Notes: a model not told the origin generated them from the letters alone. A stretch of 15,653 bases of DNA from Chthonomonadales bacterium (GCA_038217285.1 JBBQPO010000142.1:1-15653); one strand, 5' to 3'; counted from the stretch's first letter, positions 1 through 15,653 are shown. Numbers and translations are program-made.

Positions 1-1356
1 GGGTTGCTGATCCCGCAGCCGCTCAGCGAAAAGGCGCATCGAATCGAACTCCCAGAGGATCTCCAGCGCTCCCTTCTCATCGTTCGGCAGGCGCCCCGGA
101 ACCGGAAAAGAGAGCGGAGGCACGGGCCATACCTGCTCTCCTGCGACATGGAGCGCTTCCCGGCTGGTCGCCAGAATCCTCAGCCCGCCGCACCGGTGCA
201 GCAGCTCCTCTGCGTTTGCGGCGGCGGCGGTCAGCAGGTGCTCACAGTTGTCCAGCACAAGGAGCGCACTGCGATCCTGTAGATAGTCCGTCAGCGTCGT
301 CTCGACGGCGCGCCCCGGCTCATCACGCAGCCCCAGCGCCGTTGCGATGGTTCGTGCCGTCAGCTTCGGTTCGGACAGACTGTCCAACCGCACCAGCCAG
401 ACGCCGTCGGGATACTCGTCCGTCAGCTCCTCTGCGACTGCGATCGCCAGGCGGGTCTTCCCGATCCCTCCCGGCCCCGTCAGGGTCACCAGGCGGCGGC
501 GGCGCAGTCTCTCGGCAATCGCGGAGATCTGTTCGTCCCTGCCGACCATTTCCGTGAGAGGATGAAACAGCCGGGGTGCAGGGCGTCGGGCGGGAGAGCG
601 CGGGAGAACCATGCCGGGTGAGGTCTTCTGCGCCTTTCTGCGCAGTTGATGGTAGAGCGCCGTCGTCTCCGGGGCAAGGTCGGCCTGCAGTTCGCTCCTC
701 AGTGTGAGCCGGATCTCCCGATAGGCCTGAATCAGGCCAACCTGATCGCCCGAGGCGGCCAGCGCCTGCATCAACAGCCGATGCGCCCGCTCCTCCAGAG
801 GATTGACAGTGAGGAGACGCCGCAGAGACAGGATCGCCTTAGCGGCCTCCCCTGCGGTAAGCGCCTGTTCGGCAAGCCTTTCCAGGGCGTTCAGATACGC
901 TTGCTCGCGGAAAGCGCGCTCCGGAAAGACCCACTCCTCGGTACAGCCGTCCAACAACGGCCCCTTATAGAGCCCGACCGCTCGTTCCAGCGCACTGATC
1001 TCCCCGTTTTTGACCAGGGAGTCGAACGCGAACAGATCCACGTCGGCATTGGAGAGATCCAGGCGAAGGGTGTGACGGTTGGGGGATTGGAGGCGTTCGG
1101 ACTGAGCGCCGAGAGCGCGTCGCAGATCGGTGAGCGCCTGACGAAGGTTGTACATCGCCTGCGTTTCCAGGCTCTCCGGCCAGAGCGTTGCGACCAGCCA
1201 GGAGCGTTCAGCCGCGCGACCCTGACGCAGCGCCAGCAGCGCCAGTAGCCAGAGCACCTTGCGCGAGCGCAGGCGTGGCAGCGGCACCCCTTCAATCCGG
1301 ACCTCACAGGGTCCGAGTAGGTGGACGGAGAACGGCGGCGTCTCTTGTACTACCAT
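1..1356 (-). CDS. AfsR/SARP-family transcriptional regulator (winged HTH + BTAD + STAND-type P-loop ATPase); 3' end lies outside the window
   Basis: Not in the ORF track because it has no stop in the window; segments translated by hand. N-terminus MVVQETPPFSVHLLGPCEVRIEGVPLPRLRSRKVLWLLALLAL...LWPES...YNLRQALTDLRRAL is typical of the SARP HTH. Also Walker A LVTLTGPGGIGKTRLA (~446-493), Walker B-like LVLDNCEHL (~238-264) and ILATSREAL. Start ATG 1356 follows AAGGAG; an in-frame ATG at 1368 is an alternative. Confidence 0.9.
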   Translation of the reverse strand, partial: MVVQETPPFSVHLLGPCEVRIEGVPLPRLRSRKVLWLLALLALRQGRAAERSWLVATLWPESLETQAMYNLRQALTDLRRALGAQSERLQSPNRHTLRLDLSNADVDLFAFDSLVKNGEISALERAVGLYKGPLLDGCTEEWVFPERAFREQAYLNALERLAEQALTAGEAAKAILSLRRLLTVNPLEERAHRLLMQALAASGDQVGLIQAYREIRLTLRSELQADLAPETTALYHQLRRKAQKTSPGMVLPRSPARRPAPRLFHPLTEMVGRDEQISAIAERLRRRRLVTLTGPGGIGKTRLAIAVAEELTDEYPDGVWLVRLDSLSEPKLTARTIATALGLRDEPGRAVETTLTDYLQDRSALLVLDNCEHLLTAAAANAEELLHRCGGLRILATSREALHVAGEQVWPVPPLSFPVPGRLPNDEKGALEILWEFDSMRLFAERLRDQQP

Positions 1357-1443
1357 AATCTCCTTCATGGCCGGGGATGATGTCTCTCTCTCTAAACCGC
1401 GCAATACGGAGGATGTTCGTCCGTTTGGAGAGTTTTCTCTCTT

Positions 1444-1485
1444 GTACACGATTTCTCCTCCCTTTCGTACACGCTGCCGTCCACG
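1444..1485. promoter_or_regulatory. Candidate heptamer direct-repeat operator (possible SARP box)
   Basis: GTACACG at 1444 and 1467 and GTCCACG at 1479 (spacings 23 and 12 nt), lying between the divergent SARP and PEP-CTERM genes. Confidence 0.3.
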
Positions 1486-1542
1486 GAGCTGTGGGAGACT
1501 GATCCTGTCTTCGGACACAACTTGAAATCGGGAGTAGTCAAC

Positions 1543-2229: not shown

Positions 2230-2446
2230 AAGTACCGAACGATGACACTACAGCCGGTCGGACTTCCCAGACCGGTCGCAAGCCAGAGCGGACGCGCTGG
2301 AGAGGCGTCACCCTTGCGTGCCGACGATCACATACCCGGCCCTGTCTCCGTGGAACGGTACTGACTGTTCTGCCAACGACCGAGCGGGTGTTTCGATCAA
2401 GAGAGCATCAGTGACATTCATCAATCGGAAAAAGGAAACCACATTC

Positions 2447-3403
2447 ATGTACTCTCGCTCTGCCTTCGCGCCATGTAGCGTCGTGTCCGTCTCCCTGCTC
2501 GCCGCCCTGGCGCTCGCTCTCATTCCTGTGCAGAGTCAGGCGCAGAAGCTGTACGTTTCCAACGCTGATAGTAACACCATCAGCGTTTTCGACACCACTG
2601 GGAGCCTTGTCCAGACCATTGGCCTTGGCCACTTGAACATTCCCTATGGAATGACCTTCGATACTGGCGGCAACCTGTACGCTGCCAATTATAACAACGG
2701 CACCATCAGCGAGTTTGACAGCAGCGGAGTGTTCCAGCAGACCATCGGTACCGGCAACTTGAGCCGGCCCTATGGATTGACCTTTGACAGTGGAGGCAAC
2801 CTATACGCTGCCAATAATAACACCAATACCATCAGCGAGTTCAACAGCAATGGAGTGTTCCAACAAACCATCGGTGCTGGCCACTTGAGCGGTCCCGCTG
2901 GATTGACCTTCGACACCGGCGGTAACCTGTACGCTGTCAATAATAGCAGCAACACCATCAGCAAGTTCAACAGCAGCGGAGTGTTCCAGCAGACCATCGG
3001 CAACGGCAACTTAAGCGGTCCCTATGGATTAACGTTCGACAGTAGCGGCAACCTGTACGCTGCAAACTTCAACAGCAACACCATCAGCAAGTTCAACAGC
3101 AGCGGGGTGTTCCAGCAGACCATCGGTACTGGTCACTTGAGCGGTCCCTTTGGAGTAGCCTTCGACAGTGGCGGCAACCTGTACGCCGTCAATAATGGCA
3201 ACGGTACCATCAGCGAGTTCAACAGCGGCGGAGTGTTCCAGCAGACCATCGGCACAGGCAACTTGGCCGAACCCGCTTTCATAGCTTTCTCACCCGCTGC
3301 GCAAGTTGCTTCCACTCCGGAACCGGGCAGTATGGCGCTGATCGCGGGGCTGTTCGTATCGGGCGGGGGCTTCGCGGTTCGTCGCCGCCGCACACGCAAG
3401 TAA
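2447..3403 (+). CDS. NHL-repeat beta-propeller protein with PEP-CTERM sorting signal
   Basis: AAGGA upstream of ATG 2447; the track start at 2318 is probably too early. Signal peptide ...QSQA, 42-aa repeats PxGLTFDxxGNLYAxNxxxxTISxFxSxGVFQQTIGxGxL, and C-terminal TPEPGSMALIAGLFVSGGGFAVRRRRTRK. Confidence 0.92.
   Translation: MYSRSAFAPCSVVSVSLLAALALALIPVQSQAQKLYVSNADSNTISVFDTTGSLVQTIGLGHLNIPYGMTFDTGGNLYAANYNNGTISEFDSSGVFQQTIGTGNLSRPYGLTFDSGGNLYAANNNTNTISEFNSNGVFQQTIGAGHLSGPAGLTFDTGGNLYAVNNSSNTISKFNSSGVFQQTIGNGNLSGPYGLTFDSSGNLYAANFNSNTISKFNSSGVFQQTIGTGHLSGPFGVAFDSGGNLYAVNNGNGTISEFNSGGVFQQTIGTGNLAEPAFIAFSPAAQVASTPEPGSMALIAGLFVSGGGFAVRRRRTRK
2642..3271 (+). repeat. Five tandem 126-bp intragenic repeat units encoding NHL blades
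   Basis: The repeat-start Pro codon CCC recurs at 2642, 2768, 2894, 3020, 3146 and 3272, an exact 126-nt period. Shared blocks include GTGTTCCAGCAGACCATCGG and ACCATCAGC. Confidence 0.95.
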
Positions 3404-3530: not shown

Positions 3531-4286
3531 CTATTTGCGCTTGAAAATTCGCGGCAGGAGGCTCGGCTTCTCCGGATGTATCTCCCCAACAGACGTTTCG
3601 GCAGGGCGCAATAGCTCGCCGGGAACGGTCGTGTTTGATCCACTGGAGGCGGCTCGCAGAAGTTCGTCCTTCTCCCCGACCTCCTCGCGCATTCCGGCGC
3701 GCAGGAGTACTTTCGCATCCGTTCTGTTCCGCAATTCTACTAGCGCCGCTGCTGCTTCGCGTTTGAGGGCCTCTGCAAGCTCTGGTTTCTGGCATAGATG
3801 CTCGCAGAAGGTCTGTACGTTGCCCCCTACATAACGCACAAAATGACCGGAAGTACGGTGGGTGGCTCCTGCCAGGGCCTGAAGTGTGTCCAGCTTCTGT
3901 GAGAGGGTGAGGGTCGGCGCGGACAGGATGCGCAGCGGCAGTATATCGCTCGTTCCAAACTGTTCCAGCGCCTGTCCAGCGGCAATTCGAACCACGACAT
4001 TCTCATCGCTGAGCGCGGCGCACAGAGCCGCGACCCCTTCCAGATCCCCGATTCGTCCTAGCGCCTTTGCGGCGGCAGAGCGAACACGGTGGCTCATGTG
4101 GAGATGCCTGCTCTCGTAGAGGAGCACCGAGGAGAGCGGCCCGACGGCTCGCACAGCCCGTTTCAGGCCCAGCGTACCGGCGGCGAAGGCGCGAATATGC
4201 CAGTATTCGGTCTTCAACTGCTTGATAAGCGCAAGCGTCTCTGCAGTCGAAAGGGGCTTCTTTGGGTCAGAGTCTGTAATTTGCAC
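3531..4286 (-). CDS. HEAT/PBS-lyase-like repeat protein with a C-terminal LLR(A/P) triplet
   Basis: HEAT-type repeats IRAFAAGTLG, VRSAAAKALGRIGD and LSDENVVVRIAAGQALEQFG. Likely start GTG 4286 with GGAGG 8 nt upstream; the track starts at TTG 4310. Confidence 0.85.
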   Translation of the reverse strand: MQITDSDPKKPLSTAETLALIKQLKTEYWHIRAFAAGTLGLKRAVRAVGPLSSVLLYESRHLHMSHRVRSAAAKALGRIGDLEGVAALCAALSDENVVVRIAAGQALEQFGTSDILPLRILSAPTLTLSQKLDTLQALAGATHRTSGHFVRYVGGNVQTFCEHLCQKPELAEALKREAAAALVELRNRTDAKVLLRAGMREEVGEKDELLRAASSGSNTTVPGELLRPAETSVGEIHPEKPSLLPRIFKRK

Positions 4287-4361
4287 GGAAGCGACCTCCG
4301 CCCTCCGCAATTAGGGCAGCGAATCAAAGGTTTCTTGGTCTTTGATGTAGAGGCATAGCTC

Positions 4362-4401: not shown

Positions 4402-5553
4402 TTACAGGTGGAAGTGGCGGCGCATCCAGAGGCTTACGGTGACACCGATGGTCTGCATCAGGGTCTGGCCCGTCTGCGACAAGCCGAGAACGGCCACGAT
4501 AGGGGTCGCGGCGGCGAAGAGCAGAAAGGCCAGTTCGCGCAGGCGGGGGCGCTGGCCTGTCCAGAGACGCGCCAGTCCTTTGGCATCGACCAACTTGGAA
4601 CCGATGCGCAGACGCGTCAGAAACGTGCTCGCCATACCCGCGCGCCCTTTGTCGAGAAACTCCTCCAGCGAAAAGTGGGTGCCGACCGCCACGATGAGCG
4701 AAGCCCCCAGCTCATCCGCGAGGAGCATGGCGACATCCTCACTGGTGCCGGGGGAGGGGAATACGGTGGCGGTGAGGCCCAGAGATTCGATCCGCTCCAG
4801 GCCGGGAGCGCCGCGTTCGTCGCCTCGGGCATAGCCATGAACCACCAGCTCCGCGCCGCACCGCAGGGCGGCATCGCTGACGCTGTCCATGTCGCCCAGG
4901 ATAACATCGGGCTTGAGCCGGACTTCGAGCAGAGCGTCCGCGCCGCCATCGACCGCGAGAAGGACAGGCCGCGTGTCCAGCATATAGTTATGGAGCAGGG
5001 CCAGATCGTCCTTGTAGCCTTCGCCTCGCACGACGATCAGCACATGGCGGTTGGCAAAGCGTGTGCTCAATTTCGGCACATCGATCACATCGAAGAGCAG
5101 GCCCTTCTCGTTGTCGAGGTAGGCCAGTGTGTTTCGGGCAAAATGATCGAGTTCGAGGCTGAGATTGGTGTGTGCGGCTTCAAGTTGTTCGGCCAGCAGC
5201 TCCGGAGTCAACAAAACGCCTTGCAGGCACGTTCCATCGTCGAAACGCAGCGTGTCGCCCTCCCATACTGCCATACTTCCGTCCTGAACGGCTTCAAAAG
5301 CCTCCATCCCGATGGCATCAAGCAGGGGGATTCCGGCCTTCATCAGCACTTCCGGACCCCGGTTGGGGTAGCGCCCGGAGATACTCGGAACCGCGTTGAT
5401 GACGGCGGCGACCCTGTTCTCGACCAGAGTCCGCGCGGCGGTCGTGTCCAGATCGGTATGGCAGAGCAGCACGATGTCGCCGGCATGGAGCCGCCTGGTC
5501 AGATTTTTGGTGCGCCGGTCTTTCAGGACACGGTGTCGGGAGGGAACTGCCAT
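4402..5553 (-). CDS. steA: SteA-family putative cytokinetic ring protein (thiamine pyrophosphokinase-like domain, C-terminal membrane anchor)
   Basis: Family motifs DRRTKNLxxRL, SISGRYPNRGP, HVLIVVRGEGYKDDL, AVDGGADAL, GDMDSVSD, GTSEDVAMLLA, IVAVGTH, EFLDKGRAGMASTFLTRLRIGSKLVDAKG, then a hydrophobic C-terminal helix. Start ATG 5553; alternative GTG 5604. Confidence 0.9.
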   Translation of the reverse strand: MAVPSRHRVLKDRRTKNLTRRLHAGDIVLLCHTDLDTTAARTLVENRVAAVINAVPSISGRYPNRGPEVLMKAGIPLLDAIGMEAFEAVQDGSMAVWEGDTLRFDDGTCLQGVLLTPELLAEQLEAAHTNLSLELDHFARNTLAYLDNEKGLLFDVIDVPKLSTRFANRHVLIVVRGEGYKDDLALLHNYMLDTRPVLLAVDGGADALLEVRLKPDVILGDMDSVSDAALRCGAELVVHGYARGDERGAPGLERIESLGLTATVFPSPGTSEDVAMLLADELGASLIVAVGTHFSLEEFLDKGRAGMASTFLTRLRIGSKLVDAKGLARLWTGQRPRLRELAFLLFAAATPIVAVLGLSQTGQTLMQTIGVTVSLWMRRHFHL

Positions 5554-5613
5554 GCGGTTTCCGATCTGAGTCCGAAACAAAGCGAGCGCAACGTCTTGCG
5601 TCACGCCCGGTGT

Positions 5614-5671: not shown

Positions 5672-5732
5672 ACTCTCAACGTACGTAGGGGAAACAGAGC
5701 GCGTTTCGTGTGCTCGGTTCGGCAGGAAGAGA

Positions 5733-6101
5733 ATGCAAACGGATTCGATACTCATCAATGGGCTGGAGTTCTACGGCTATCACGGCGCTTCCGACCAGGA
5801 ACAGACGGTGGGGCATCGGTATCAGGCGGATGTGCGATTGACCGTGGACACGCGCCCCGCCGGGGAGAGCGACCGCCTGAGCGACACCGTGAGCTACTCT
5901 CGCGTGGCAAAACGTCTGCTGGAGATAGGCACACAGGAGCAGTACCGCTTGCTGGAAGCGCTGGCTGCCCGTATGGTCGTCGTTGTTTTCGCCGACTTTC
6001 CGCTCGTGCGGGGCCTGACGCTCCGGATCCAGAAGATGGTTCCGCCGATGAACGCGATCGTCTCCTCGGTCGGGGTGGAGATCACCCGCGTCCGGGGATG
6101 A
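5733..6101 (+). CDS. folB: Dihydroneopterin aldolase
   Basis: 122 aa from ATG 5733 (AGGA upstream). Motifs DSILINGLEFYGYHG..DQE...GHRY..D, SDRLSDTVSY, YRLLEALA, QKMVPPM and VGVEITR. Confidence 0.93.
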   Translation: MQTDSILINGLEFYGYHGASDQEQTVGHRYQADVRLTVDTRPAGESDRLSDTVSYSRVAKRLLEIGTQEQYRLLEALAARMVVVVFADFPLVRGLTLRIQKMVPPMNAIVSSVGVEITRVRG

Positions 6102-6880
6102 GAGCAGCCATGAAAATTTCCGGCAGGCGAAAACGAGGCTTGCTGGCGTTGGGACTGGCTGGTGGTGTCCTCGTCCTCTCCGTCTGCAACGCGACTTACA
6201 ACGGATTCACCCTGACCGAATGGTGGCGGGATCTGCATTCCGGAGTGGTGCTCTCCCATGCCGTCACGTCCGAAAAAGTAGTAGCGTTGACCTTTGACGA
6301 TGGCCCCGATCCCAACTACACCCCGCGTGTCCTCGACATCTTACGCCGTTACTCCCTCCATGCCACGTTCTTTGACCAGGGCAGGCTGATACAACAGTAT
6401 CCGCAAATCGTGCGTCGAGCGGTCGCGGAGGGAAACTGCCTCGGCAATCATACCTATTCCCACCCTTACCTTACGCGTCTCACGCCCGGGGCGATCCAAA
6501 ACGAAATGCAGTCCTGCGAGCACAGCATCGAGGCGAATGTTGGGATAAGGACGGCGCTGTTTCGTCCGCCGCGCGGGGACTGGAATCCGGCCGTCTATCG
6601 GGAGACAGTAGAGGAGAGAAACCGGCTTATCCTCTGGACACTGGCTCTGGAGCACCACGATGTTCCGACGCCGCAGGCGATGGCGCAGCGGGTGCTGCAA
6701 CGCGTTCGGCCTGGAGACATCATTCTCATGCACGACGGAGCGTTCGTCTCCCGTGAGACAACCGTGCAGGCGCTCCCACTCGTGATCGAAGGGCTGCAGC
6801 GGCGTGGATACCGCTGCGTCACCGTGCCGGAACTGCTGCACATTCCCGCCATCTTGCCTCTCTCTCCCCGATCACGCTGA
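6098..6880 (+). CDS. Polysaccharide deacetylase (NodB/CE4 family), N-terminally anchored or exported
   Basis: ATGA overlap with the folB stop (alternative ATG 6110). Basic plus hydrophobic N-terminus, then VALTFDDGP, GNHTYSHP, FRPPRG and GDIILMHD. The track's 130-aa N-terminal extension overlaps folB and is not credible. Confidence 0.92.
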   Translation: MRAAMKISGRRKRGLLALGLAGGVLVLSVCNATYNGFTLTEWWRDLHSGVVLSHAVTSEKVVALTFDDGPDPNYTPRVLDILRRYSLHATFFDQGRLIQQYPQIVRRAVAEGNCLGNHTYSHPYLTRLTPGAIQNEMQSCEHSIEANVGIRTALFRPPRGDWNPAVYRETVEERNRLILWTLALEHHDVPTPQAMAQRVLQRVRPGDIILMHDGAFVSRETTVQALPLVIEGLQRRGYRCVTVPELLHIPAILPLSPRSR

Positions 6881-6885
6881 AGCAA

Positions 6886-8361
6886 ATGAAGGAACCTAAA
6901 AACAAGCCGCTTCCCTTTCCTCCAATCGCCTGGGCGATTGCCGCGCTTGCGGTCATCGTGCGCCTTATCGTCGCGTGGAACAGCCATTTCACGAGCGAAG
7001 ATTTCCTGATCACATTGCGCTACGCGGAGAATCTCGCGCACGGCAACGGGCTGGTTTTTAACGTCGGCGAACGCGTTTTAGGAACGACGACTCCGCTCTA
7101 CACGCTGTTTCTGGCGGCGATGTCGTGGATCGGCCTGCCTCCTGCGCCTCTCGGCAAGATGGTCAACATTCTGGCCGATGCGGGACTGTGCCTGCTGACG
7201 TATCGGCTCTTGCGTGGAATTGGGGAGGAGACGGCCGGTAGAGTGGCGGCCCTGTGCGTCGCGCTCTGCCCGCTGCAGATCCAGTGGAGCGTTTCGGGAA
7301 TGGAGACGAGCCTGGTTTCGTGCTGCGGCATGGCGGTTTGGGTCGCCTTCGCAGAGCGGCGGACGTTTTGGGCGTATGGGGCGGTCGCCGTGCTGTTCCT
7401 GCTGCGGTGGGACGGTATTCTGGTTTTTGTCGTGCTGACCCTGGCAACGGTCTGGCGCGACCGCAGGCTTCCGTACGGCGGCATTCTGTTGTTCGCTCTG
7501 GCCATCGCGCCGTGGCTGCTGTTCGCCACCCATTTCTACGGCAATCCGATCCCCGTGACTGCGTCCGCGAAATCCATTGTCTACGGCTGGCGAGCGCAGC
7601 ACGACCCGAACGTGCTGTTGCGCCATCTTCCCAGCCTGCCGAAACTGATCCAGCGTTTTATCCTCAGTCCAGGGTACGGCGTGATGACGCTCTTCGCCTG
7701 CGCCGGTCTGGTCCGAGCCCGAACAGCAAGACACGTCGTTCTCCTGCCTCCCGCGCTCTGGTTCGCCCTCTACTGGCTCGCTTTCTTAATCTCACGCGTG
7801 CTGCTATTTCCCTGGTACCTTGTTCCTCCGCTGGCGGTCTACGAGGTGGCTGTCGGGCTGGGCGGCGTCGCTGCGTGGGAATGGCTGCAGCACAGGCGGA
7901 GTTTCGACGTGCCGCGCCCTGTCTCTGGCGCGTTGTTCGGTACGCTGGCTGTCGCCTGCACCGTGGGCACGATGGTGATGACGCGAGGTGAGCAGGAGGT
8001 GGAAGAGAAGGTCCGCATCCCCCTCGCTCTCTGGCTGCAGGCGCACAGTCGCGCGACGGATCGTGTCATGCTTGAGCCTATCGGCTACATCGGCTACTAC
8101 GCGCACCGGCCTGTTCTGGATGTGGTCGGGCTCGTATCACCGCAGGTTCTGCGCTACTATCAGCCGCAGATCGAGGCGCCCATGCTGGAGATGGCGCGCG
8201 CCTTTCGTCCAGAGTGGTGCGTGCTGCGTCTGGGGGAGATCGCCCGCATCCAGCGCGCCGCCACAGCGCAGGGGGACCCGTGGGAAGACCATTACCGCTG
8301 TGTGCAGACCTTCTCCTACGCCCCGAATCATAACGTCTACTATGTCTTCCAGCGCAGATGA
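6886..8361 (+). CDS. Polytopic GT-C-fold glycosyltransferase (AftB/PMT-like membrane protein)
   Basis: EDFLITLRYAENLAHGNGLVFNVGERVLGTTTPLY after TM1, SGMET, many hydrophobic segments, and C-terminal IGYIGYY...VLDVVGLVSP. Confidence 0.8.
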   Translation: MKEPKNKPLPFPPIAWAIAALAVIVRLIVAWNSHFTSEDFLITLRYAENLAHGNGLVFNVGERVLGTTTPLYTLFLAAMSWIGLPPAPLGKMVNILADAGLCLLTYRLLRGIGEETAGRVAALCVALCPLQIQWSVSGMETSLVSCCGMAVWVAFAERRTFWAYGAVAVLFLLRWDGILVFVVLTLATVWRDRRLPYGGILLFALAIAPWLLFATHFYGNPIPVTASAKSIVYGWRAQHDPNVLLRHLPSLPKLIQRFILSPGYGVMTLFACAGLVRARTARHVVLLPPALWFALYWLAFLISRVLLFPWYLVPPLAVYEVAVGLGGVAAWEWLQHRRSFDVPRPVSGALFGTLAVACTVGTMVMTRGEQEVEEKVRIPLALWLQAHSRATDRVMLEPIGYIGYYAHRPVLDVVGLVSPQVLRYYQPQIEAPMLEMARAFRPEWCVLRLGEIARIQRAATAQGDPWEDHYRCVQTFSYAPNHNVYYVFQRR

Positions 8362-8410
8362 GAATGTTGCGCCAAAGTCCGGTAACCGCCGCTCTCCCTG
8401 ATTCGTAAGG

Positions 8411-8416
8411 TAAAAT
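8411..8416 (+). promoter_or_regulatory. Candidate -10 box for the nadA leader transcript
   Basis: TAAAAT in GC-rich surroundings about 175 nt upstream of the nadA ATG. No recognisable -35 box. Confidence 0.4.
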
Positions 8417-8501
8417 AGAGACGTTAGACGTTGCCCTATGGCAACTCACCCGCAGGACAGATTGATCCTGACGATTATTTTGCATCGACAACCACGTTTA
8501 T

Positions 8502-8575
8502 GGGCGTTGACAACATCCCCGTTCAGGGAGGATGACTCGGAGGATAGGCTCCGGTTCTCCCTGGACTGCACGCCC
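8502..8575 (+). ncRNA. Candidate NAD+-I (nadA motif)-like riboswitch aptamer
   Basis: Outer stem GGGCGUUGACA/UGCACGCCC with two bulged nt, one-sided bulge ACAUCCCC, 10-bp stem GUUCAGGGAG/CUCCCUGGAC, apical stem CGGAG/CUCCG. It ends 1 nt before the SD GAGGAG of nadA and matches the recalled core CA-ACAACCCC-GU...AC-UG with one substitution. Confidence 0.65.
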
Positions 8576-8590
8576 CGAGGAGACAATTTC

Positions 8591-9682
8591 ATGTTTCAGC
8601 AGCCCCTGCCTATCGAAATCACCCGTCTGACGCCGGAAGAGACCGACGCCCGCCTTGCGACTGCGCGGCGTTGCCTCGGCGAAGATCTGGTGATACTGGG
8701 CCACCACTATCAGCGGGATGAGATCATCAAGTGGGCCGATTTTCGCGGAGACAGCCTCAAACTATCTCAACTCGCGGCCGAACACCCGGAAGCGAAGTAT
8801 ATCATTTTCTGCGGCGTTCACTTCATGGCGGAGTCCGCCGACATTCTGGCAGGCGAGGATCAGATCGTCATTCTGCCCAACATGAATGCGGGCTGCTCGA
8901 TGGCGGATATGGCGAGCAGTCATCAGGTGGAAGACTGCTGGGAAGACCTCGCCACGGCGACCGACATCTCCCGCATCGTGCCGATCACCTATGTCAACTC
9001 GACCGCCGCCCTCAAAGCCTTCGTCGGACGCAACGGCGGTGCCTCCTGCACTTCGTCGAACGCGAAAAAAGTGGTAGAGTGGGCGCTGGAGCGGGGCGAT
9101 AAACTGCTCTTTTTCCCGGACCAACATCTGGGGCGCAACACCGCTGTCGCGCTGGGGCTCGATCCTGAGCAGGATATGCTGCTCTGGGATCCGCACAAGC
9201 CGTTCGGTGGTACGACGCCAGAGGAGGTGCGGGCGAAGCGGGTTCTGCTCTGGAAAGGCCACTGCTCGGTGCATGGCCGCTTCAACGTGGAGCAGATCAC
9301 GAAGGCACGGGCCGACTATCCTGGCGTCCGCGTCATCGTGCATCCGGAGTGTCCACTGGATGTGGTGCAGGCCGCCGATCTGAACGGTTCGACAGAGTTT
9401 ATCATCAAGGCCGTTACCGAGTCACCGGCCGGAACGACCTGGGCCGTCGGGACTGAGGTGAACCTTGTCAACCGACTGGCGCACGAGCAGCCCGACAAGA
9501 CGATCTTCTGCCTCGATCCGGTCGTCTGTCCCTGCTCCACGATGTACCGTATCCACCCACAATACCTGCTCTGGGTGATGGAGAACCTGGTGAACGGCGT
9601 CGTCGTCAATCAGGTGAAAGTCAAGCCCGAAATCGCGTCCGATGCCCGCCTGGCTCTGAATCGAATGCTCACCATTCGGTAG
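8591..9682 (+). CDS. nadA: Quinolinate synthase NadA
   Basis: GAGGAG 8 nt before ATG 8591. Motifs ILGHHYQRDE, CGVHFMAESA, AGCSMADMA, TYVNS, CTSSNA, PDQHLGRNT, WKGHCSVH, VHPEC, GTE and CPCSTMYRI, including the three [4Fe-4S] cysteines. Confidence 0.97.
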   Translation: MFQQPLPIEITRLTPEETDARLATARRCLGEDLVILGHHYQRDEIIKWADFRGDSLKLSQLAAEHPEAKYIIFCGVHFMAESADILAGEDQIVILPNMNAGCSMADMASSHQVEDCWEDLATATDISRIVPITYVNSTAALKAFVGRNGGASCTSSNAKKVVEWALERGDKLLFFPDQHLGRNTAVALGLDPEQDMLLWDPHKPFGGTTPEEVRAKRVLLWKGHCSVHGRFNVEQITKARADYPGVRVIVHPECPLDVVQAADLNGSTEFIIKAVTESPAGTTWAVGTEVNLVNRLAHEQPDKTIFCLDPVVCPCSTMYRIHPQYLLWVMENLVNGVVVNQVKVKPEIASDARLALNRMLTIR

Positions 9683-9799: not shown

Positions 9800-9919
9800 G
9801 GGACGCTCTTGGCAACTATTGTGCAACGACGAAACTTCCCGCACTCGTAATAGGTATCAGAGTATGTGAAGACAATGCCACCTTTTCGGGCCAGACTTGC
9901 CGACACCACTTACGAAAAA

Positions 9920-10630
9920 ATGACCAAGCAAACCAAACTTCTACCGCTGTCGGCACTGCTGTTGGTGCCCGTGTTTGTCGGCTGTGCTCCCTCGCCGGGA
10001 GGGAGCGCGCCTCCGTACTCGCCGCCCATACGCTCTTCCCGCCCTGCCGGGACGCTGCATCTGCTCGTCGGAGTGGATGTGAGCGGCAGCACCGGAGACG
10101 ATCCGCTGACCCGCAAACGCTACTGCGCGCAGATCGAGGATACCATCGATACGATCCTGCCGCGTGAAACGCCCGTGACTATCTGGTTCTATGACACGGC
10201 GGCACGGATTCATTTTGGGCCGCAGAAGCTTCAGCAAGGCAGTGAGCTGCGTCCGGTGGAAAAAGATATTCTTGCCTATCGGTCCGACAACAAGGGGACA
10301 AAACAGTCGGTCCCGCTCCTGGCGATGCTGTCGGTCGTCAAAGACCTGGACAGCAAAGGCGACAGCTCCGTCTGCATGTTGCTGACCGACAGCGAGGACG
10401 ACGACAGCAACGCGACGAAGAAGGTGGCCGAGGAGTTGGCGGCCATCGCAAGCGTTCGCGCCGTCTGTGTCAGCGGAGCCAAAACCGAGGCGCGGTACCG
10501 TAATTTCATGCGCCAGAAACTGACGGAAGCCCTGACGCCGCTTGGCAGTCGCGCCGTCATCACCGGTGAGGGAGCAGACACGCAGGGCGGACTGGATCGC
10601 CTGCGGATACTGACGCAAGGAGGGCCGTAA
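9920..10630 (+). CDS. Predicted lipoprotein with a von Willebrand factor A domain
   Basis: MTKQTKLLPLSALLLVPVFVG-C lipobox-like signal, Pro/Ser linker, MIDAS LLVGVDVSGS...KGT...MLLTDSED. Start uncertain (9866, 9875 or 9920). Confidence 0.75.
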   Translation: MTKQTKLLPLSALLLVPVFVGCAPSPGGSAPPYSPPIRSSRPAGTLHLLVGVDVSGSTGDDPLTRKRYCAQIEDTIDTILPRETPVTIWFYDTAARIHFGPQKLQQGSELRPVEKDILAYRSDNKGTKQSVPLLAMLSVVKDLDSKGDSSVCMLLTDSEDDDSNATKKVAEELAAIASVRAVCVSGAKTEARYRNFMRQKLTEALTPLGSRAVITGEGADTQGGLDRLRILTQGGP

Positions 10631-10631
10631 C

Positions 10632-12218
10632 ATGGACGAAGAACTGTCGAGGCAGGCCCCGGCACAGGATCGGGAGCCGGAGCCGCCCACCCCCCTCTAT
10701 CGTAATGGCACGAACGGCGTCCATGCGACCATGCCCCTCCCTTCGCCTCCTTCCTTGTCGGAAGCGGCGCACTCCGAGCCACGGCCCGAGGCAACTGCCA
10801 CGTCCGAACCCGGCTCGATGTACTGGCAGCAGAACATGGCAGGCGAGGGGCGCGAAATCCTCTGGTACAATCCGCCGCTGCCGACGTCGCAACGGCGTCG
10901 TGACGAACTCGGCACGATGGTGAGCTCGTTCATCGGGCTGCTCGGCGAGCGCTCTCCTCGCGGCTGGTTCCTTCTCTGGACCTACCAGTCCCGCGCGGCG
11001 GCGGCCCAGGAGGAGGCGGAAAGGCTCGAACAGGAGTCGCGCGCCTTCCTCACAGCGGAGACCGAGAGAGCCCGGACGGAGCGGCGAGACCTGGACGCCG
11101 AGATCACCCGGCTGACGGGAGAACGCGCGCGAATCGAAACCACACTGGAGGCACAGCAGGAGCGGTTCGCGGAGATCACCGGTCGTGCCGGACTGATCCC
11201 GGAAGCCGGCCCTGTCACCGTGCAGGGCGTCGAAACCGCTCTGCAGAAACAGACGCCCAGCCTGGAGCGCGTCGCCGGATTTCACGGGGTCAGCCCGGCG
11301 CACCACGACAGCGGGATCGGTCGGATGCTCTCTACCGGAATTTTCGGGGTGTTGGCCCCTCTGGTCAGCGGTTTCATGCTGGCGCTCTGTCTGGGCACTC
11401 TGGTCGGACTGGTGGATCTGAAGGCGCTCAAACGGCCCGAGCTCCGGCTCAGCGACTACTTCCCGTTTATACTCTCAGCACTGCTCGGCTTTGTGATCGT
11501 CTATCTCATGGGGGAGCTTTACTATACCGCCATCCACGCGCTCACCCGTGCGCTGGAAGAGCGCGAGGAGGGCAAACGGCCCGGCGCGCTGGAAGAGCGC
11601 GAGGAGGGCAAACGGCCCGGCGCGCTGCCATCGCGCTATCGGGCCGCGCTGGGAGTGGCGATGGTCCTCCTGGTCGGCGCCGTGGTGCTGGGCTGCTCGG
11701 AGATAGCGGCCGAGGCGATGGGGCTTCGTGCGCTGCATCTCACCCGCATCGCCGACCTGGAGATTCGCGGCGTCACCGAGCATGAGCTTCCCATGTTCCT
11801 CTATACCCTGATCGGGCTGCTTATCAGCGGCCCTTACCTGCTCTACAAGTCCGCCAGGGCGTGGAATCACCACGACCTGAACCTGCGTCATGCCTGGCTG
11901 CTGCATCAACAGGAGGAGTGGAATCGGGACCGGCGCGGACAGGAGGCGGTGCAGGCTTCGTTTCATCAGGCGCGGGTGCTGGAACAGACCATGGCCCGAC
12001 TGGAGCTGGTAAAGACGCACGAGGAGGCCGCCCGCAGCCGTCGCACCGAGCTCAATTCGGTGGCGCTCTCTCCGGAGATGCGTGTCCGCCTGGACGAGGC
12101 GCGCGGCGCGGCCGTTGGCGAGGCGGCACGACTGCACCAGATGATCGAACAACTGGTCGATACCCACGAACCGCTGCACACGGCGTCGCCGCCCGTGCGC
12201 GCCGCGCATGGCTGGTAG
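10632..12218 (+). CDS. Uncharacterised membrane protein: Pro-rich N-terminus, coiled coil, about 4 TM helices, C-terminal coiled coil
   Basis: 528-aa ORF starting 1 nt after the upstream stop, preceded by AGGAGG. E/R/A-rich heptad segments flank four hydrophobic stretches. Confidence 0.8.
   Translation: MDEELSRQAPAQDREPEPPTPLYRNGTNGVHATMPLPSPPSLSEAAHSEPRPEATATSEPGSMYWQQNMAGEGREILWYNPPLPTSQRRRDELGTMVSSFIGLLGERSPRGWFLLWTYQSRAAAAQEEAERLEQESRAFLTAETERARTERRDLDAEITRLTGERARIETTLEAQQERFAEITGRAGLIPEAGPVTVQGVETALQKQTPSLERVAGFHGVSPAHHDSGIGRMLSTGIFGVLAPLVSGFMLALCLGTLVGLVDLKALKRPELRLSDYFPFILSALLGFVIVYLMGELYYTAIHALTRALEEREEGKRPGALEEREEGKRPGALPSRYRAALGVAMVLLVGAVVLGCSEIAAEAMGLRALHLTRIADLEIRGVTEHELPMFLYTLIGLLISGPYLLYKSARAWNHHDLNLRHAWLLHQQEEWNRDRRGQEAVQASFHQARVLEQTMARLELVKTHEEAARSRRTELNSVALSPEMRVRLDEARGAAVGEAARLHQMIEQLVDTHEPLHTASPPVRAAHGW
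11550..11627 (+). repeat. Perfect in-frame 36-bp tandem duplication (ALEEREEGKRPG x2)
   Basis: GCGCTGGAAGAGCGCGAGGAGGGCAAACGGCCCGGC at 11550-11585 and 11586-11621, followed by GCGCTG. Confidence 0.97.
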
Positions 12219-12224
12219 CGCCTG

Positions 12225-13478
12225 ATGGGGAAGAGCTTCCGCGCCCAACTCGGCTCCCGTCTTCGCTTCGCCCTGATCGGCTTCGCGGCCTGTCTGCTCG
12301 TCGCCGGGGCGCTCGAACTGCTGTTCGAGAGCGTGGACATGCAGGGATTTCTTGCCAGTCAGTCGGCGCGCTCCCTCCTGTTCGAGGTCGGTGCGGTACG
12401 GCGATCGACCCGAGATCGCCTCAAAACCGGCGACATTCAGATTACCCTGCACTGGCATAATCGCAACGATCTCGACCTCTGGTGCGAGGACCCCACGGGC
12501 GAGCGGATCTACTACGGGCATCCGCGCGCGAACTCCGGCGGGGAGCTGGACTTCGACATGAACTCCGGTGGCGTGAACTCCTCCTCCGATCCAGTCGAAA
12601 ACATTCACTGGCCGCAGAACTCCGCTCCCAGGGGCCATTATCGAGTCTTTGTCAACTACTTCCAGCCGCACGGTGATCCCGATCCGACCGGTTTTGAAGG
12701 AAAGATCTTGGTGGAAGGCCATACACAGACCTTCGTGGGCACGGCGGACTATCGAGAGAGAGACCGCAAACAGTTTGCTGCGGCATTCGACGTCACACAC
12801 GATCCCCGGACCTTCCTCGGTATCCATCCCGGTATTCTCTTCGCGTCGCTGATCGTCGGGGCGTGGTTCGGGCTGACGGCGGCCCTTCTGGCGCTGGCGC
12901 TGATCGGTGCGGAAAACCTCTGGTATCGCCGTTACTACAAAAAGCCGATTCTGAATGTAGTCGCGTCTGCCAGGGCGGTCGGGATCGCGTTCTCCATCGC
13001 TTTTGGGTGCGCGGCCTTGAGCCAACTGGTGTTCGGCGCGGTCGCGAATCATCTTCCGCCGCTGTTTGTCGTCTTGTTGCGTCTGGTAGGGTGGACGGCC
13101 TGTTTCGCGGTCATCGGCGCGTGCCTAAGTCGCGTCGTGCCGAACGTGTCGCGCAAGACGGCTGTCCTGGTCAGTCTCGTGGCGGGTTGGATCGCCGGGG
13201 TCGTGTTCCTGTTCGGGGCGCTGGCGGATAGCGAGATCGTGGCGCGGCTGTTCGGGGCAGGCCTGGTCGGCTTCGTCATCGGTTTCCTCATCTGCCTGCT
13301 CTGGGAAGAGCAGGCCGCGCCCGTAAAGACGAATCCTGCCTTCTCTTTGCCGCCCATGCGCCTCCAGCCCTACCGCATGACGGTTAATCAGATGGAGAAC
13401 GTCGGCCGAAATGCCCAGCAGCCTGTTCCGGCACCCGACAGCAAGCCACCCATAGTGCCGCACGAAAAACCGGAGTGA
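12225..13478 (+). CDS. Membrane protein with a YfaP/DUF2135-like beta domain and a C-terminal multi-TM bundle
   Basis: N-terminal TM helix, then GDIQITLHWHNRNDLDLWCEDPTGERIYY...GGELDFDMN...PVENIHW...APRGHYRVFVNYF, then about 5 Gly-rich TM helices. Confidence 0.8.
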   Translation: MGKSFRAQLGSRLRFALIGFAACLLVAGALELLFESVDMQGFLASQSARSLLFEVGAVRRSTRDRLKTGDIQITLHWHNRNDLDLWCEDPTGERIYYGHPRANSGGELDFDMNSGGVNSSSDPVENIHWPQNSAPRGHYRVFVNYFQPHGDPDPTGFEGKILVEGHTQTFVGTADYRERDRKQFAAAFDVTHDPRTFLGIHPGILFASLIVGAWFGLTAALLALALIGAENLWYRRYYKKPILNVVASARAVGIAFSIAFGCAALSQLVFGAVANHLPPLFVVLLRLVGWTACFAVIGACLSRVVPNVSRKTAVLVSLVAGWIAGVVFLFGALADSEIVARLFGAGLVGFVIGFLICLLWEEQAAPVKTNPAFSLPPMRLQPYRMTVNQMENVGRNAQQPVPAPDSKPPIVPHEKPE

Positions 13479-13515: not shown

Positions 13516-14796
13516 TTGTTGCTATCGCACTTTCGCACCTGTTCGGAGCCGTTAACGCTGCGCCGGGACGGCAATCCTGTGCATTGGAATGATGAGTCTT
13601 TGCATCGCGCGGCCTTTGGGTCCGATCCCGAACTCTATACTCTGTGCGCCTTCGCAGGAGGGATTCACCCCTGGCAGCAGGCCCGCATCCTGTTTCTTCT
13701 CCTGACGGAATCACGCCGCCGCCTTTCGCCGTCTCTGTGGTCCCATTGTGAGCGCATAACGCTGTTTCTCCTCGCGACCCTTCCCACGGATCTTGTGCTC
13801 TGCGTCTTTCTCGCGGTACGGCGCGCGCGGGCCAACCATCGGCACACCGTTCGCGCCGTGCTCTCCTATCTGCTGCAGCATCCGGACATCGAGGCGATGG
13901 CCCAGTCCCGGCCTCGGGAGATTCGGGACTGCCTGGAACATGCCCTCGGCCAGGGCCGGGTGCGCTACTTCGGTTACCATGCGCCGCGATTGGGACGGGA
14001 GGCTTCCCTCTGTGCACCGCTGCGCCGCTACGGCGGTTCCGAAGCACGCCTGCGATCCTTGTTCGAATGCCTCTATTTCGGAGCGAAGACGGGACCGGCG
14101 CGGTATGGAAGGCAGAAGGTCACCGCGCCCGTCAACGAACCAGCGTCGCCCGGAACTCTGGTTCCTCTGCTGAGCCGTCTCTACCGTGACGGAACCTCTC
14201 CTGAACTGATAAGCGGACTGGAAGCGGCGATTGCAGGCTCGTCTGCCGATCTTCCCAGCCTTTCCGGACGGATCGCGCTCATTCTGGATGCCTCCGCCTC
14301 GATGCGCGGCAGCGGTGAGCCGCCGTATGCGCCGATAGCGCTTGCGGTCGCGTTCGAGCGTGTCTTGCAGATAAAATGTGCGGATCTGCGCTTCTATACA
14401 ATCGGTGGCTTTGGCTGGCCGCCCGCCCCGGAAGGCCCGACAGATTTTGGGCGGGCGCTTCTAGATGCCCTTGAAGGCGCTCCTGACCTGATCGTAATCC
14501 TGACTGACGGTTATGAAAACCTGAACGACGGCGATGCCGCCCGGATCGTCGCCACCCTGCGGACGCTCGGCCTCTCGACTCCGGTCGTCTGCTGCTGCGT
14601 GGACCTTCCTGTCGTATTCCCCGCAGCAAACGTTCCTACGATTCCACTGCGCACGGCAGAGGACTTCGAGGCGACCTTACAGGTTTTCGACATGATGATC
14701 GCCCCGCAAGCGGCCCGGACGAGGATTGTGAATCGACTGCGCGAGCGGCAGAGCTTGTGGGAAACGGAGGTCTTGGGATGGACTGTCGCGCCCTGA
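13516..14796 (+). CDS. Alpha-helical (TROVE/ROT-like) N-terminal region fused to a C-terminal vWA domain
   Basis: MIDAS LILDASASM...GPTD...ILTDGYEN. The N-terminal region is Arg-rich and helical (RRARANHRHT, LEHALG). No signal peptide. The vWA call is firm; TROVE-likeness and the TTG start are tentative. Confidence 0.72.
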   Translation: MLLSHFRTCSEPLTLRRDGNPVHWNDESLHRAAFGSDPELYTLCAFAGGIHPWQQARILFLLLTESRRRLSPSLWSHCERITLFLLATLPTDLVLCVFLAVRRARANHRHTVRAVLSYLLQHPDIEAMAQSRPREIRDCLEHALGQGRVRYFGYHAPRLGREASLCAPLRRYGGSEARLRSLFECLYFGAKTGPARYGRQKVTAPVNEPASPGTLVPLLSRLYRDGTSPELISGLEAAIAGSSADLPSLSGRIALILDASASMRGSGEPPYAPIALAVAFERVLQIKCADLRFYTIGGFGWPPAPEGPTDFGRALLDALEGAPDLIVILTDGYENLNDGDAARIVATLRTLGLSTPVVCCCVDLPVVFPAANVPTIPLRTAEDFEATLQVFDMMIAPQAARTRIVNRLRERQSLWETEVLGWTVAP

Positions 14797-15653
14797 CAGG
14801 GGATCTTCTCGACCTGTCCGACTATCGTTTCGGGACTCCGCAAAGGGCGGGGCTCTTGACGGTCGTACCGATCACAGGGCGGCACGTCTCGAACGGCTTC
14901 CTCCCGCCGGGGAAGCGGAGTAGAGGCGGGAAACAGACGGTCGTAGACTCTACCAGCCTTCACAACGATTCGGAGAGCGATTGCCTGCTCGCGCCGCTGC
15001 ATTTTGGGCGTCCGACCGAGCGCAACAGCAGTCGAATCCTGTCTGGAACTGTGCTGGTGCCGAGTGGGAAGCGCCTGGAACTCGGCAAGGATATGGTTTT
15101 CCCCTATCACTTTTCCCGCCGCATTTGCTTCGATCTGTCGCGAAACTACATGCTGCCGCTCGCGTTGCGCGGCCCTGCCTGGCGCGCACGTCTCTCCTCG
15201 GACGTATCCCGTCTGACCCCAGAAATCAACGCTCTGCAAACAGCGCTAAGCCGCCACGATCTCGGTACTCTTTCCACTGCAGTTCAGGCAAAAAATGCGG
15301 AATTAAACACCTATTCTCGCCGGATCGAGCTGCAGACAGGGCAGACGGGCGCACTGTTTTTCATTCAGGATCGGCCTGTCGGCCTGGAGATCGGCCCGTC
15401 GCCTGCCTACTTCGAGGCTATCTGGCAGCCACTCCTCATCGGATGCTATGGGCTGACGGCGTTGCTGCGCCAACATGAATCGGCTTACGCTGCTCCGCCG
15501 CCGGAGCCTTATGCCGTCTCCCGTCTCGCAGATCTGCGCGCCGAGATGTTTCGTGTACGCCATCAACGCCAGGAGGAGTTGGAAGCCGCCCTCGCAGGTT
15601 ATCCGGCAGAGACTTTCGTGATCGAAGAGGGTCAGCAGTGGCAGGATTTTCGT
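14778..15653 (+). CDS. ARPP-1 (DUF6569)-like protein; 3' end lies outside the window
   Basis: Not in the ORF track; translated by hand. GGAGG 7 nt before ATG 14778, 19-nt overlap with the upstream gene, 292 open codons to the edge: MDCRALTGDLLDLSDYRFGTPQRAGLLTVVPITG...APLHFG...MLPLALR...ELQTGQTGALFFIQDRPVGLEIGPSPAYFEAIWQPLLIGCYG. The ORF is secure; the family call is from recalled motifs. Confidence 0.7.
   Translation, partial: MDCRALTGDLLDLSDYRFGTPQRAGLLTVVPITGRHVSNGFLPPGKRSRGGKQTVVDSTSLHNDSESDCLLAPLHFGRPTERNSSRILSGTVLVPSGKRLELGKDMVFPYHFSRRICFDLSRNYMLPLALRGPAWRARLSSDVSRLTPEINALQTALSRHDLGTLSTAVQAKNAELNTYSRRIELQTGQTGALFFIQDRPVGLEIGPSPAYFEAIWQPLLIGCYGLTALLRQHESAYAAPPPEPYAVSRLADLRAEMFRVRHQRQEELEAALAGYPAETFVIEEGQQWQDFR

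Follow-up and report, generated by a model that had tools for sequence, protein, structure and literature searches.

A single-domain, domain-2-like NAD+-I riboswitch candidate upstream of nadA in Chthonomonadales

The leader of nadA, encoding quinolinate synthase A, in a genome of the Chthonomonadaceae raises the question of whether a riboswitch class that published work (PMC6859854 and PMC10702441) confines to Acidobacteria may also occur, and as a single domain, in a different phylum. The leader lies in a stretch of DNA of 15,653 nucleotides, analysed as a whole and called the window here, for which an original prediction had proposed an NAD+-I-like aptamer abutting the nadA ribosome-binding site (RBS).

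The nadA motif of Acidobacteria is described as always tandem, with ACANCCCC in both domains, of which domain 1 carries a P1b helix and an internal loop, while domain 2 is without that loop and holds the RBS within its P1' helix (Malkowski et al. 2019, PMC6859854). According to PMC6859854, neither domain occurs alone, and according to PMC10702441, no single-domain examples are known. The validated acidobacterial riboswitch represses nadA when NAD+ is abundant (PMC6859854). In the structure of domain 1, the adenosine docks on the penultimate C:G pair of P1 and stacks on A8, metals are held by A8, C9, A10, C14, and C15, and C13 and C14 pair with a GYG loop, an arrangement which needs a P1a of 7 bp (PMC7297122). 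The domain-2 crystal features the same pocket contacts and no J1-J2 contact, isolated domain 2 binds ADP only at about 3.4 mM (PMC7708056), and in-line probing of ten constructs detected no ligand binding by domain 2 (PMC6859854). As for selectivity, the full riboswitch is reported not to discriminate against ATP (PMC10702441), and for domain 1 as well as for the full-length tandem RNA, binding of ADP and ATP is similar to that of NAD+ (PMC10702441 and PMC7297122).

Locus and predicted fold of the element

The gene nadA occupies positions 8591..9682 of the plus strand, stop codon included, with its ATG at 8591-8593; the Pfam NadA domain (PF02445) is matched over 8591-9679 with 333 bits and an E value of 1.6e-99. 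Upstream of it, on the same strand, lies a bulged stem. Its lower helix P1 is formed by the 5' strand GGGCGUUGACA (8502..8512, with U8508 and A8510 unpaired) and the 3' strand UGCACGCCC (8567..8575), both delineated by sequence, RNAfold, and covariation, and amounts to 9 bp, GC-rich and with two bulged bases. The J1 bulge ACAUCCCC (8513..8520), counterpart of the ADP- and metal-binding loop of the NAD+-I domains, is flanked by CA/UG pairs below (8511-8512 with 8567-8568) and GU/AC pairs above (8521-8522 with 8565-8566). The upper hairpin (8521..8566) is taken from the RNAfold minimum free energy (MFE) structure and comprises P1a (8521-8533 with 8554-8566), a 4-nt bulge (8534-8537), and P1b with its loop (8538-8553). 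A single base, C8576, separates P1 from the Shine-Dalgarno (SD) sequence GAGGAG (8577..8582), and a CA-rich tract, AACCAC (8490..8495), precedes P1 and is the window's copy of the conserved CCRC tract described below.

RNAfold applied to 8495-8595 returns the described fold at −38.6 kcal/mol (z = −2.25), with 4 of 200 shuffles equally stable; as far as this model goes, the folding energy of the window alone is only mildly unusual. The stem-bulge-stem fold that had been proposed at these positions is confirmed by sequence and by RNAfold, and its reading as a putative NAD+-I-type bulged-stem aptamer directly 5' of nadA is supported, with the identity of the gene resting on the Pfam E value of 1.6e-99.

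Scores with the Rfam model

The Rfam nadA riboswitch family RF03013 is a single-domain model of 62 positions with a gathering cut-off of 37.5 bits. The search with this covariance model, which the original prediction had called for, gave a divided result: at a permissive threshold the only match within 8360-8640 falls on the site (8506-8573, 22.0 bits, with an E value of 0.008 for the 281 nt searched and of 0.042 genome-wide), but the score stays below the cut-off, and at the gathering threshold the window contains no match. A match of 21.7 bits is found in the same genome inside a PRPP-synthetase-like open reading frame (ORF), where the word concerned encodes FNIPV. With a match of equal score in a coding ORF, the Rfam score taken by itself does not rise above chance, and it is the comparison with relatives that has to carry the case. 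The chance match is located at G000:C68:6088-6173 (L002, 1501-1586), and its ORF also contains a Guanidine-III match of 16 bits.

The core of the window, CAACAUCCCCGU...ACUG, equals the RF03013 consensus letter for letter, and hence the U in the bulge is no deviation. This corrects the earlier view of the element as a variant with an A-to-U change in the bulge: the published consensus is ACANCCCC (PMC6859854), the Rfam consensus reads CAACAUCCCC, and U stands at that position in 12 of the 18 canonical acidobacterial domains.

As a control, RF03013 was run over 151 Acidobacteriota genomes, where it found 9 carriers, each with two adjacent matches of 40.1-62.1 bits, upstream of nadA in 9/9. Chthonomonadales elements score 20-31 bits with the same model, against 40-62 for the acidobacterial controls; none of the 68 genomes of Chthonomonadales searched contains a match above the cut-off, the best reaching 31.3 bits, and annotation based on Rfam (Rfam 15) thus misses the whole group (0/68 genomes over the cut-off). 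We did not find a second domain, whether with RF03013 over 8360-8640, with the bulge motif within 300 nt upstream, or with RF03013 in the 68 genomes; each leader has one bulge motif within 300 nt upstream of nadA.

Distribution of the element

The nearest NadA relatives in the GTDB species collection, 92-73% identical, are all metagenome-assembled genomes (MAGs) of Chthonomonadaceae, Chthonomonadales, or Chthonomonas. Chthonomonadales belong to the phylum Armatimonadota, and the genome of the window falls with those relatives in Chthonomonadaceae (family f1), which bears out the claim that the element lies outside Acidobacteria. When we read 29 leaders (the window, L005-L030, L044, and L046), 24 displayed CAACAUC(C/U/A)CC, a hairpin, CUG, and then a strand complementary to the 5' strand of P1.

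A covariance model, R1, was built from a MAFFT alignment of 22 core sequences with 14 base pairs. In the genome of the window it assigns 61.4 bits to the site and 16.3 bits to the runner-up, and throughout the order it finds exactly one match per genome in 40 of 68 genomes, distributed over family f1 (32/41, plus the window's own genome), f2 (7/24), and f3 (0/2). According to tblastn or Pfam, nadA lies directly downstream of 38 of the 40 matches; the match in G168, whose score and length equal those of leader L022, was counted as the 39th nadA-adjoining copy, and the match in G162 does not adjoin nadA. Members outside the R1 seed comprise 17 at 28.0-60.4 bits and the weaker L044 (21.6 bits, E value 0.0067). 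Nine weak RF03013 matches missed by R1 were fetched, and six of them turned out to be nadA leaders with the bulge, three not; the six diverged leaders keep the bulge on quite different P1 sequences. Combining R1 and the weak RF03013 matches, the element is present in at least 45 of the 68 Chthonomonadales genomes, always in single copy.

Among 151 Armatimonadota genomes sampled across the phylum, R1 obtained matches in 8 including the window's own, 7 of them in Chthonomonadales; the eighth match (L093, 28 bits) is away from nadA. At 55 other loci (L028-L084, L044 and L046 excepted), ACANCCCC was not found upstream; the set takes in a few bulge-less leaders from Chthonomonadales and Armatimonadota, and also Chloroflexota, Pyrinomonadaceae, and others.

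A recent transfer from Acidobacteria was considered and rejected. Riboswitch-bearing acidobacterial NadA proteins are only 54-57% identical to the NadA of the window, so that a recent joint transfer is unlikely, and they are no closer to it than NadA of Chloroflexota or Pyrinomonadaceae. Within the family, two Chthonomonadaceae MAGs (L017 and L023, at about 1400-1503) have nadA directly after the preceding gene, whose stop codon overlaps the SD, and the leader element is absent. The same upstream gene is followed in L008-L010 by a riboswitch-type element, and gain or loss within the family can thus be deduced.

Covariation of the stems and conservation of the pocket

The leader alignment which had been suggested as a check on the fold shows that both stems, P1 and P1a, covary. 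In the alignment made with the covariance model (CM; 40 distinct sequences), 92.7% of the cells pair, compared with 79.6% in shuffles, double-change cells number 74 versus 21.0 in shuffles, and compensatory changes are seen in 9 of the 14 pairs, while sliding the partner by 1-3 columns lowers pairing to 26-41%. This alignment is fitted to the structure, and the count was therefore repeated on the structure-unfitted MAFFT seed, where 90.2% of the cells pair versus 81.0%, double-change cells are 32 versus 11.3, and slid controls do not exceed 41%. Since the sequences are related, controls based on shuffles overstate significance, and these figures are not to be read as probabilities.

The first five base pairs of P1a covary, with compensatory changes in four of them, and the rest of the upper hairpin ranges in relatives from a 6-bp stem with a 3-nt loop (L020) to about 90 nt. 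P1 is wholly replaced in distant members, which display, for example, UGCUG/CAGCA, CGGGACC/GGUCCCG, and GUGCCG/CGGCAC types. All 40 members keep the C:G and A:U pairs at the top of P1 as well as the first pair of P1a, G:C. The bulge reads ACAUCCCC in 32 of the 40 aligned members: its positions 1-3, 5, 7, and 8 (A8, C9, A10, C12, C14, and C15) never change, U stands at position 4 in 39/40, and position 6 (C13) varies among C, U, and A in 8/40. This last position, 8518 in the window, is U in L008, L011, L012, L111, and L120 and A in L018 and L019, and L117 combines U at position 6 with A at position 4.

The structure, its conservation, and its association with nadA are shown by these leaders, as is the conservation of the pocket: the nucleotides invariant here are those contacting ADP or metal ions in the solved acidobacterial structures, with adenosine, Mg2+, and the diphosphate as the contacted groups in domain 1 (PMC7297122) and the same contacts retained in domain 2 (PMC7708056). 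That C13 is the sole freely varying position of the bulge fits the absence of a J1-J2 contact.

Comparison with known NAD+ riboswitches

The Chthonomonadales element shares with the tandem NAD+-I riboswitch of Acidobacteria the domain built of stem, ACANCCCC bulge, and stem, the closing pairs CA/UG below and GU/AC above the bulge, and the location directly 5' of nadA with the RBS at the 3' foot of the regulatory helix. It differs in that the acidobacterial riboswitch has two domains whereas here there is one per leader, in another phylum; the 9-bp, GC-rich P1 with its two bulged bases, the SD outside P1, and the CCRC tract upstream of P1 are further differences. Measured against the RF03013 family, the element departs from it in four respects, namely, the score relative to the cut-off, the tandem arrangement, the J2 loop, and the location of the RBS within P1', and agrees with it in the bulge and closing pairs, the position 5' of nadA, and the covariation of the stems.

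The resemblance is closest to domain 2. In the acidobacterial copies, domain 2 runs GCUUUCA, ACAUCCCC, GU, a variable hairpin, AC, and UGAAGGC, followed by GGAG. Common to it and to the Chthonomonadales element are the lack of a J2 internal loop, a hairpin above the bulge that varies in length and sequence, U as the usual base at the N position of the bulge, and an SD at the 3' end of P1. However, domain 2 of Acidobacteria holds the RBS in the 3' strand of P1', while the SD of Chthonomonadales follows P1; the acidobacterial P1' (GCUUUCA/UGAAGGC) includes the purine-rich RBS, while the 3' strand of P1 is C-rich in Chthonomonadales; and C13, invariant in the 9 acidobacterial domain 2 copies, is variable in 8 of the 40 Chthonomonadales members. 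The GYG loop of domain 1, present by eye in 9/9 canonical acidobacterial domain 1 copies, is found at the 7-bp P1a position in 0/40 members, the window having UCUC there, and at 8 of the 9 acidobacterial loci it is domain 2 that receives the higher R1 score. Because R1 prefers domain 2, the GYG loop is absent, and the variable position is the J2 partner C13, the Chthonomonadales element is read, from its sequence, as a single, domain-2-like relative of the NAD+-I class.

The only published single-domain relative is the ubiB motif of Nocardia (PMC6859854). Like the element described here, it has one domain, is related to the nadA motif, occurs outside Acidobacteria, and is presumed to act on translation; yet it is a derivative of domain 1 with a few key positions changed and is linked to ubiB/aarF rather than to nadA. 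Going by its published description, the Chthonomonadales element is set apart from it by nadA as the downstream gene and by the lack of a J2 loop. The NAD+-II riboswitch (pnuC motif) is likewise NAD-related and controls translation, but its fold, a pseudoknot, is unrelated, recognition is of the nicotinamide side, and the gene downstream is pnuC; no match to it was obtained in the Rfam scan of the window.

Sequences flanking P1

Upstream of P1, a G-poor tract of consensus A-A-A-(A/C)-C-C-R-C-R-W lies 4-8 nt 5' of the helix. The word CC[AGU]C occurs within the last 16 nt 5' of P1 in 38 of 47 leaders, versus 9 of 47 in the control window −36..−21, and the base composition of these 16 nt is A.33, C.35, G.14, and U.19 (47 leaders). 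A helix P0, joining the tract to the region around the SD, was tried as an explanation and discarded, the RNAduplex pairing of the 16 nt 5' of P1 with the 3' flank being weaker than in shuffles (mean z of +0.35, 39 leaders); a column-by-column comparison of the tract with the rest of the leader revealed only coincidences of invariant C and G and no covariation.

On the other side, 28 of 39 leaders have a GGAG-like SD core that begins at a distance of 0-3 nt from P1, and in the window GAGGAG follows P1 after one base. YYC stands directly before the AUG in 28 of 47 leaders, compared with 8% for 409 control genes with an SD from the window's genome, and a local hairpin between the SD and the pre-AUG region of −2 kcal/mol or better is predicted in 35% of the leaders versus 11% of the controls. 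Taken together, YYC and the predicted hairpin hint at an expression platform. For the window itself, the mini-hairpin of SD and pre-AUG region has a predicted energy of 0.0 kcal/mol, and the MFE structure includes a 6-bp hairpin of GAGACA (8580-8585) with UGUUUC (8592-8597) that takes in one half of the SD along with some of the start codon. A search for an intrinsic terminator 3' of the aptamer was negative; a single terminator-like site was detected, 5' of the aptamer at 8453-8470, with 0.4 such sites expected by chance. Two small hairpins, GUUGCC...GGCAAC and CAGGA...UCCUG, occupy the region 5' of the CCRC tract (8431-8470). A U-rich run comes after the second one, which is the terminator-like site, and in relatives this place is likewise taken by a hairpin, of unrelated sequence.

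Proposed mechanism and alternative explanations

According to the reading we favour, with a probability of about 0.6, 8502-8575 is a cis-regulatory, single-domain RNA of the NAD+-I type which binds the ADP moiety of NAD+ or NADH and acts as an OFF switch. We infer its ligand, the direction of switching, and the mechanism as follows. The binding site would lie where the C:G/A:U top of P1 meets ACAUCCCC and would take up Mg2+ and the ADP moiety of NAD+ or NADH; it is modelled on the crystals of both acidobacterial domains. Once liganded, P1-J1-P1a would become a rigid stack abutting the SD, which would remove the single-stranded landing space 5' of the SD and lower initiation; alternatively or in addition, the small SD/pre-AUG hairpin stacked on P1 might be stabilised. 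Abundant NAD+ would in this way reduce nadA translation and exert feedback on the enzyme catalysing the first committed step of de novo NAD synthesis. We read the element as OFF because the validated switch is OFF and because the SD core is tightly spaced to P1; its gene association is that of the validated nadA-repressing riboswitch (PMC6859854).

Forcing P1 in the window costs 0.08 kcal/mol, and P1 is predicted to be essentially always formed. The predicted energy required to open the SD of the leaders is 3.9 kcal/mol when free, 3.2 with P1 forced, and 4.4 with the 5' strand of P1 blocked, compared with 3.07 kcal/mol for 400 control genes of the own genome. A thermodynamic switch by SD occlusion was rejected on these grounds, the SD opening energies of the leaders resembling those of ordinary genes (3.2-4.4 versus 3.07 kcal/mol). 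If anything, the modelled difference in SD opening points slightly toward ON, that is, to a switch whose unliganded aptamer parts pair with the SD and whose folding upon ligand binding frees it, so that nadA translation rises. We consider such an ON switch very unlikely. In its favour, with the 5' strand of P1 blocked, opening the SD costs 4.4 kcal/mol on average instead of 3.2, and in L024, L025, and L089 a CCCUC at the 3' end of P1 can, by eye, pair with GAAGGG downstream. However, the pairing that had originally been proposed to act in this manner, between UCUCC (8556-8560) and GGAGA (8579-8583), did not hold up: a CUCC-like word in the 3' half of the hairpin occurs in 12 of 39 leaders and is not conserved, and the underlying complementarity of hairpin to SD is at shuffle level (mean z of −0.18; −0.23 in the window). 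Another hairpin, between the 5' strand of P1 and the bulge, also speaks against ON and was rejected as an alternative, since it is no better than shuffles (mean −3.75 versus −2.99 kcal/mol); in the window it reaches −2.9 versus −3.8 kcal/mol in shuffles, and it is strong only in GAUG-type members (−7.2 kcal/mol, with about 7% of shuffles as good). Further against an ON switch, P1 of the window is predicted to be constitutive, and an end product inducing its own biosynthetic gene would be illogical and opposite to the acidobacterial switch (PMC6859854). A resemblance to the nadA motif by mere chance, to which the sub-threshold Rfam score and the equal match in a coding region of the same genome could point, is hardly credible and is already contradicted by the comparative data from at least 45 genomes, in which the element is conserved, covaries, and is specific to nadA.

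Two further explanations accept the kinship with the NAD+-I class and dispute what the element senses. The aptamer could have lost metabolite sensing and persist as a ligand-independent 'ghost' that stabilises the mRNA, binds a protein, or damps translation to a fixed degree. Binding by domain 2, undetected by in-line probing (PMC6859854) and very weak by fluorescence (PMC7708056), the absence of the affinity-setting J1-J2 contact (0/40), and a P1 predicted to be stable without ligand are all compatible with such a loss, but a plain hairpin needs no invariant 8-nt bulge with closing pairs that equal the ADP/Mg2+ pocket while the stems change freely, and for this we deem it unlikely. A different ligand or partner is in our view distinctly unlikely: ADP, ATP, or another ADP-containing cofactor might be bound, in keeping with the similar binding of ADP, ATP, and NAD+ by domain 1 and the tandem RNA (PMC10702441 and PMC7297122), or the conserved CA-rich CCRC tract beside P1 might serve as a second recognition element, for instance, for the nicotinamide half. 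Against this stand the association with nadA of 39 of the 40 model matches, one copy per genome, and the lack of covariation of the tract with other parts of the leader. Also under the OFF reading that we prefer, a lone domain-2-like aptamer may bind weakly or unselectively, as domain 2 binds ADP at about 3.4 mM and the full riboswitch accepts ATP. Also weighing against that reading are the Rfam score of 22.0 bits, the location of the SD outside P1, and the predicted 0.0 kcal/mol of the window's mini-hairpin.

In L024, L025, and L089, the SD-like GAAGGG lies 9 nt after P1, and the CCCUC with which it can pair overlaps the 3' end of P1; read by eye, this hairpin would exclude P1, a platform unlike that of the rest of the family.

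Significance of a single, domain-2-like element

In the literature searched, with subscription-only papers and supplements outside the search, neither an NAD+-I-type element from Armatimonadota nor a nadA-associated form with a single domain turned up. Since 2019 the NAD+-I class has posed a puzzle, in that only domain 1 binds well, domain 2 carries the platform and barely binds, and the full RNA does not distinguish NAD+ from ATP. Here, instead, a second phylum displays the domain-2-like unit only, with purifying selection on exactly the pocket nucleotides, and the Chthonomonadales element is thus a natural test case for the role of the second domain in the NAD+ riboswitch. It is of clear interest to specialists because it bears directly on what domain 2 and the tandem arrangement are for: with a minimal construct of about 75-110 nt one can test whether domain-2-type sensing and regulation work alone, what the tandem contributes, and what flanking single-stranded sequence does.

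More tentatively, and as a possibility that we would not bet on at even odds, a lone domain-2-type stem may be a self-sufficient NAD+ sensor, with the SD abutting a constitutive P1 and the single-stranded CCRC tract assisting, a platform of undescribed type. If this were true, the 'silent' domain 2 of Acidobacteria would be the ancestral regulatory sensor and domain 1 an add-on, and the CCRC tract may replace the input of domain 1 or J2, be it in affinity, in NAD+/ATP selectivity, or as a ribosome standby site.

Genomic neighbourhood and candidate promoter motif

On the plus strand, five long ORFs around nadA (6886-8361, 9866-10630, 10632-12218, 12225-13478, and 13516-14796) have no Pfam match at an E value of 0.001, nor do the minus-strand ORFs over the same five-ORF stretch. 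The other genes of the window comprise a BTAD/STAND-ATPase regulator (4-1518, minus strand), an NHL-repeat protein (2318-3403, plus), a HEAT-repeat protein (3531-4310, minus), a SteA-like protein (4402-5604, minus), a polysaccharide deacetylase (5708-6880, plus), and an ARPP-1 domain protein (14757-15653, plus), and no other NAD genes were found within the 15,653 nt.

A sigma-70 consensus scan of the region upstream of nadA returned no promoter. Between the upstream ORF and the leader, at 8404-8421, we noted the motif TCGTAAGGTAAAATAGAG. Similar words of the TCGTA-N-TA..AT-AG type were recognised by eye about 60-170 nt 5' of nadA in L005, L006, L013, L021, and L024-L027, and in L026 the TCGTA-type motif stands directly 5' of P1. 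This motif may represent the nadA promoter of the Chthonomonadales lineage.
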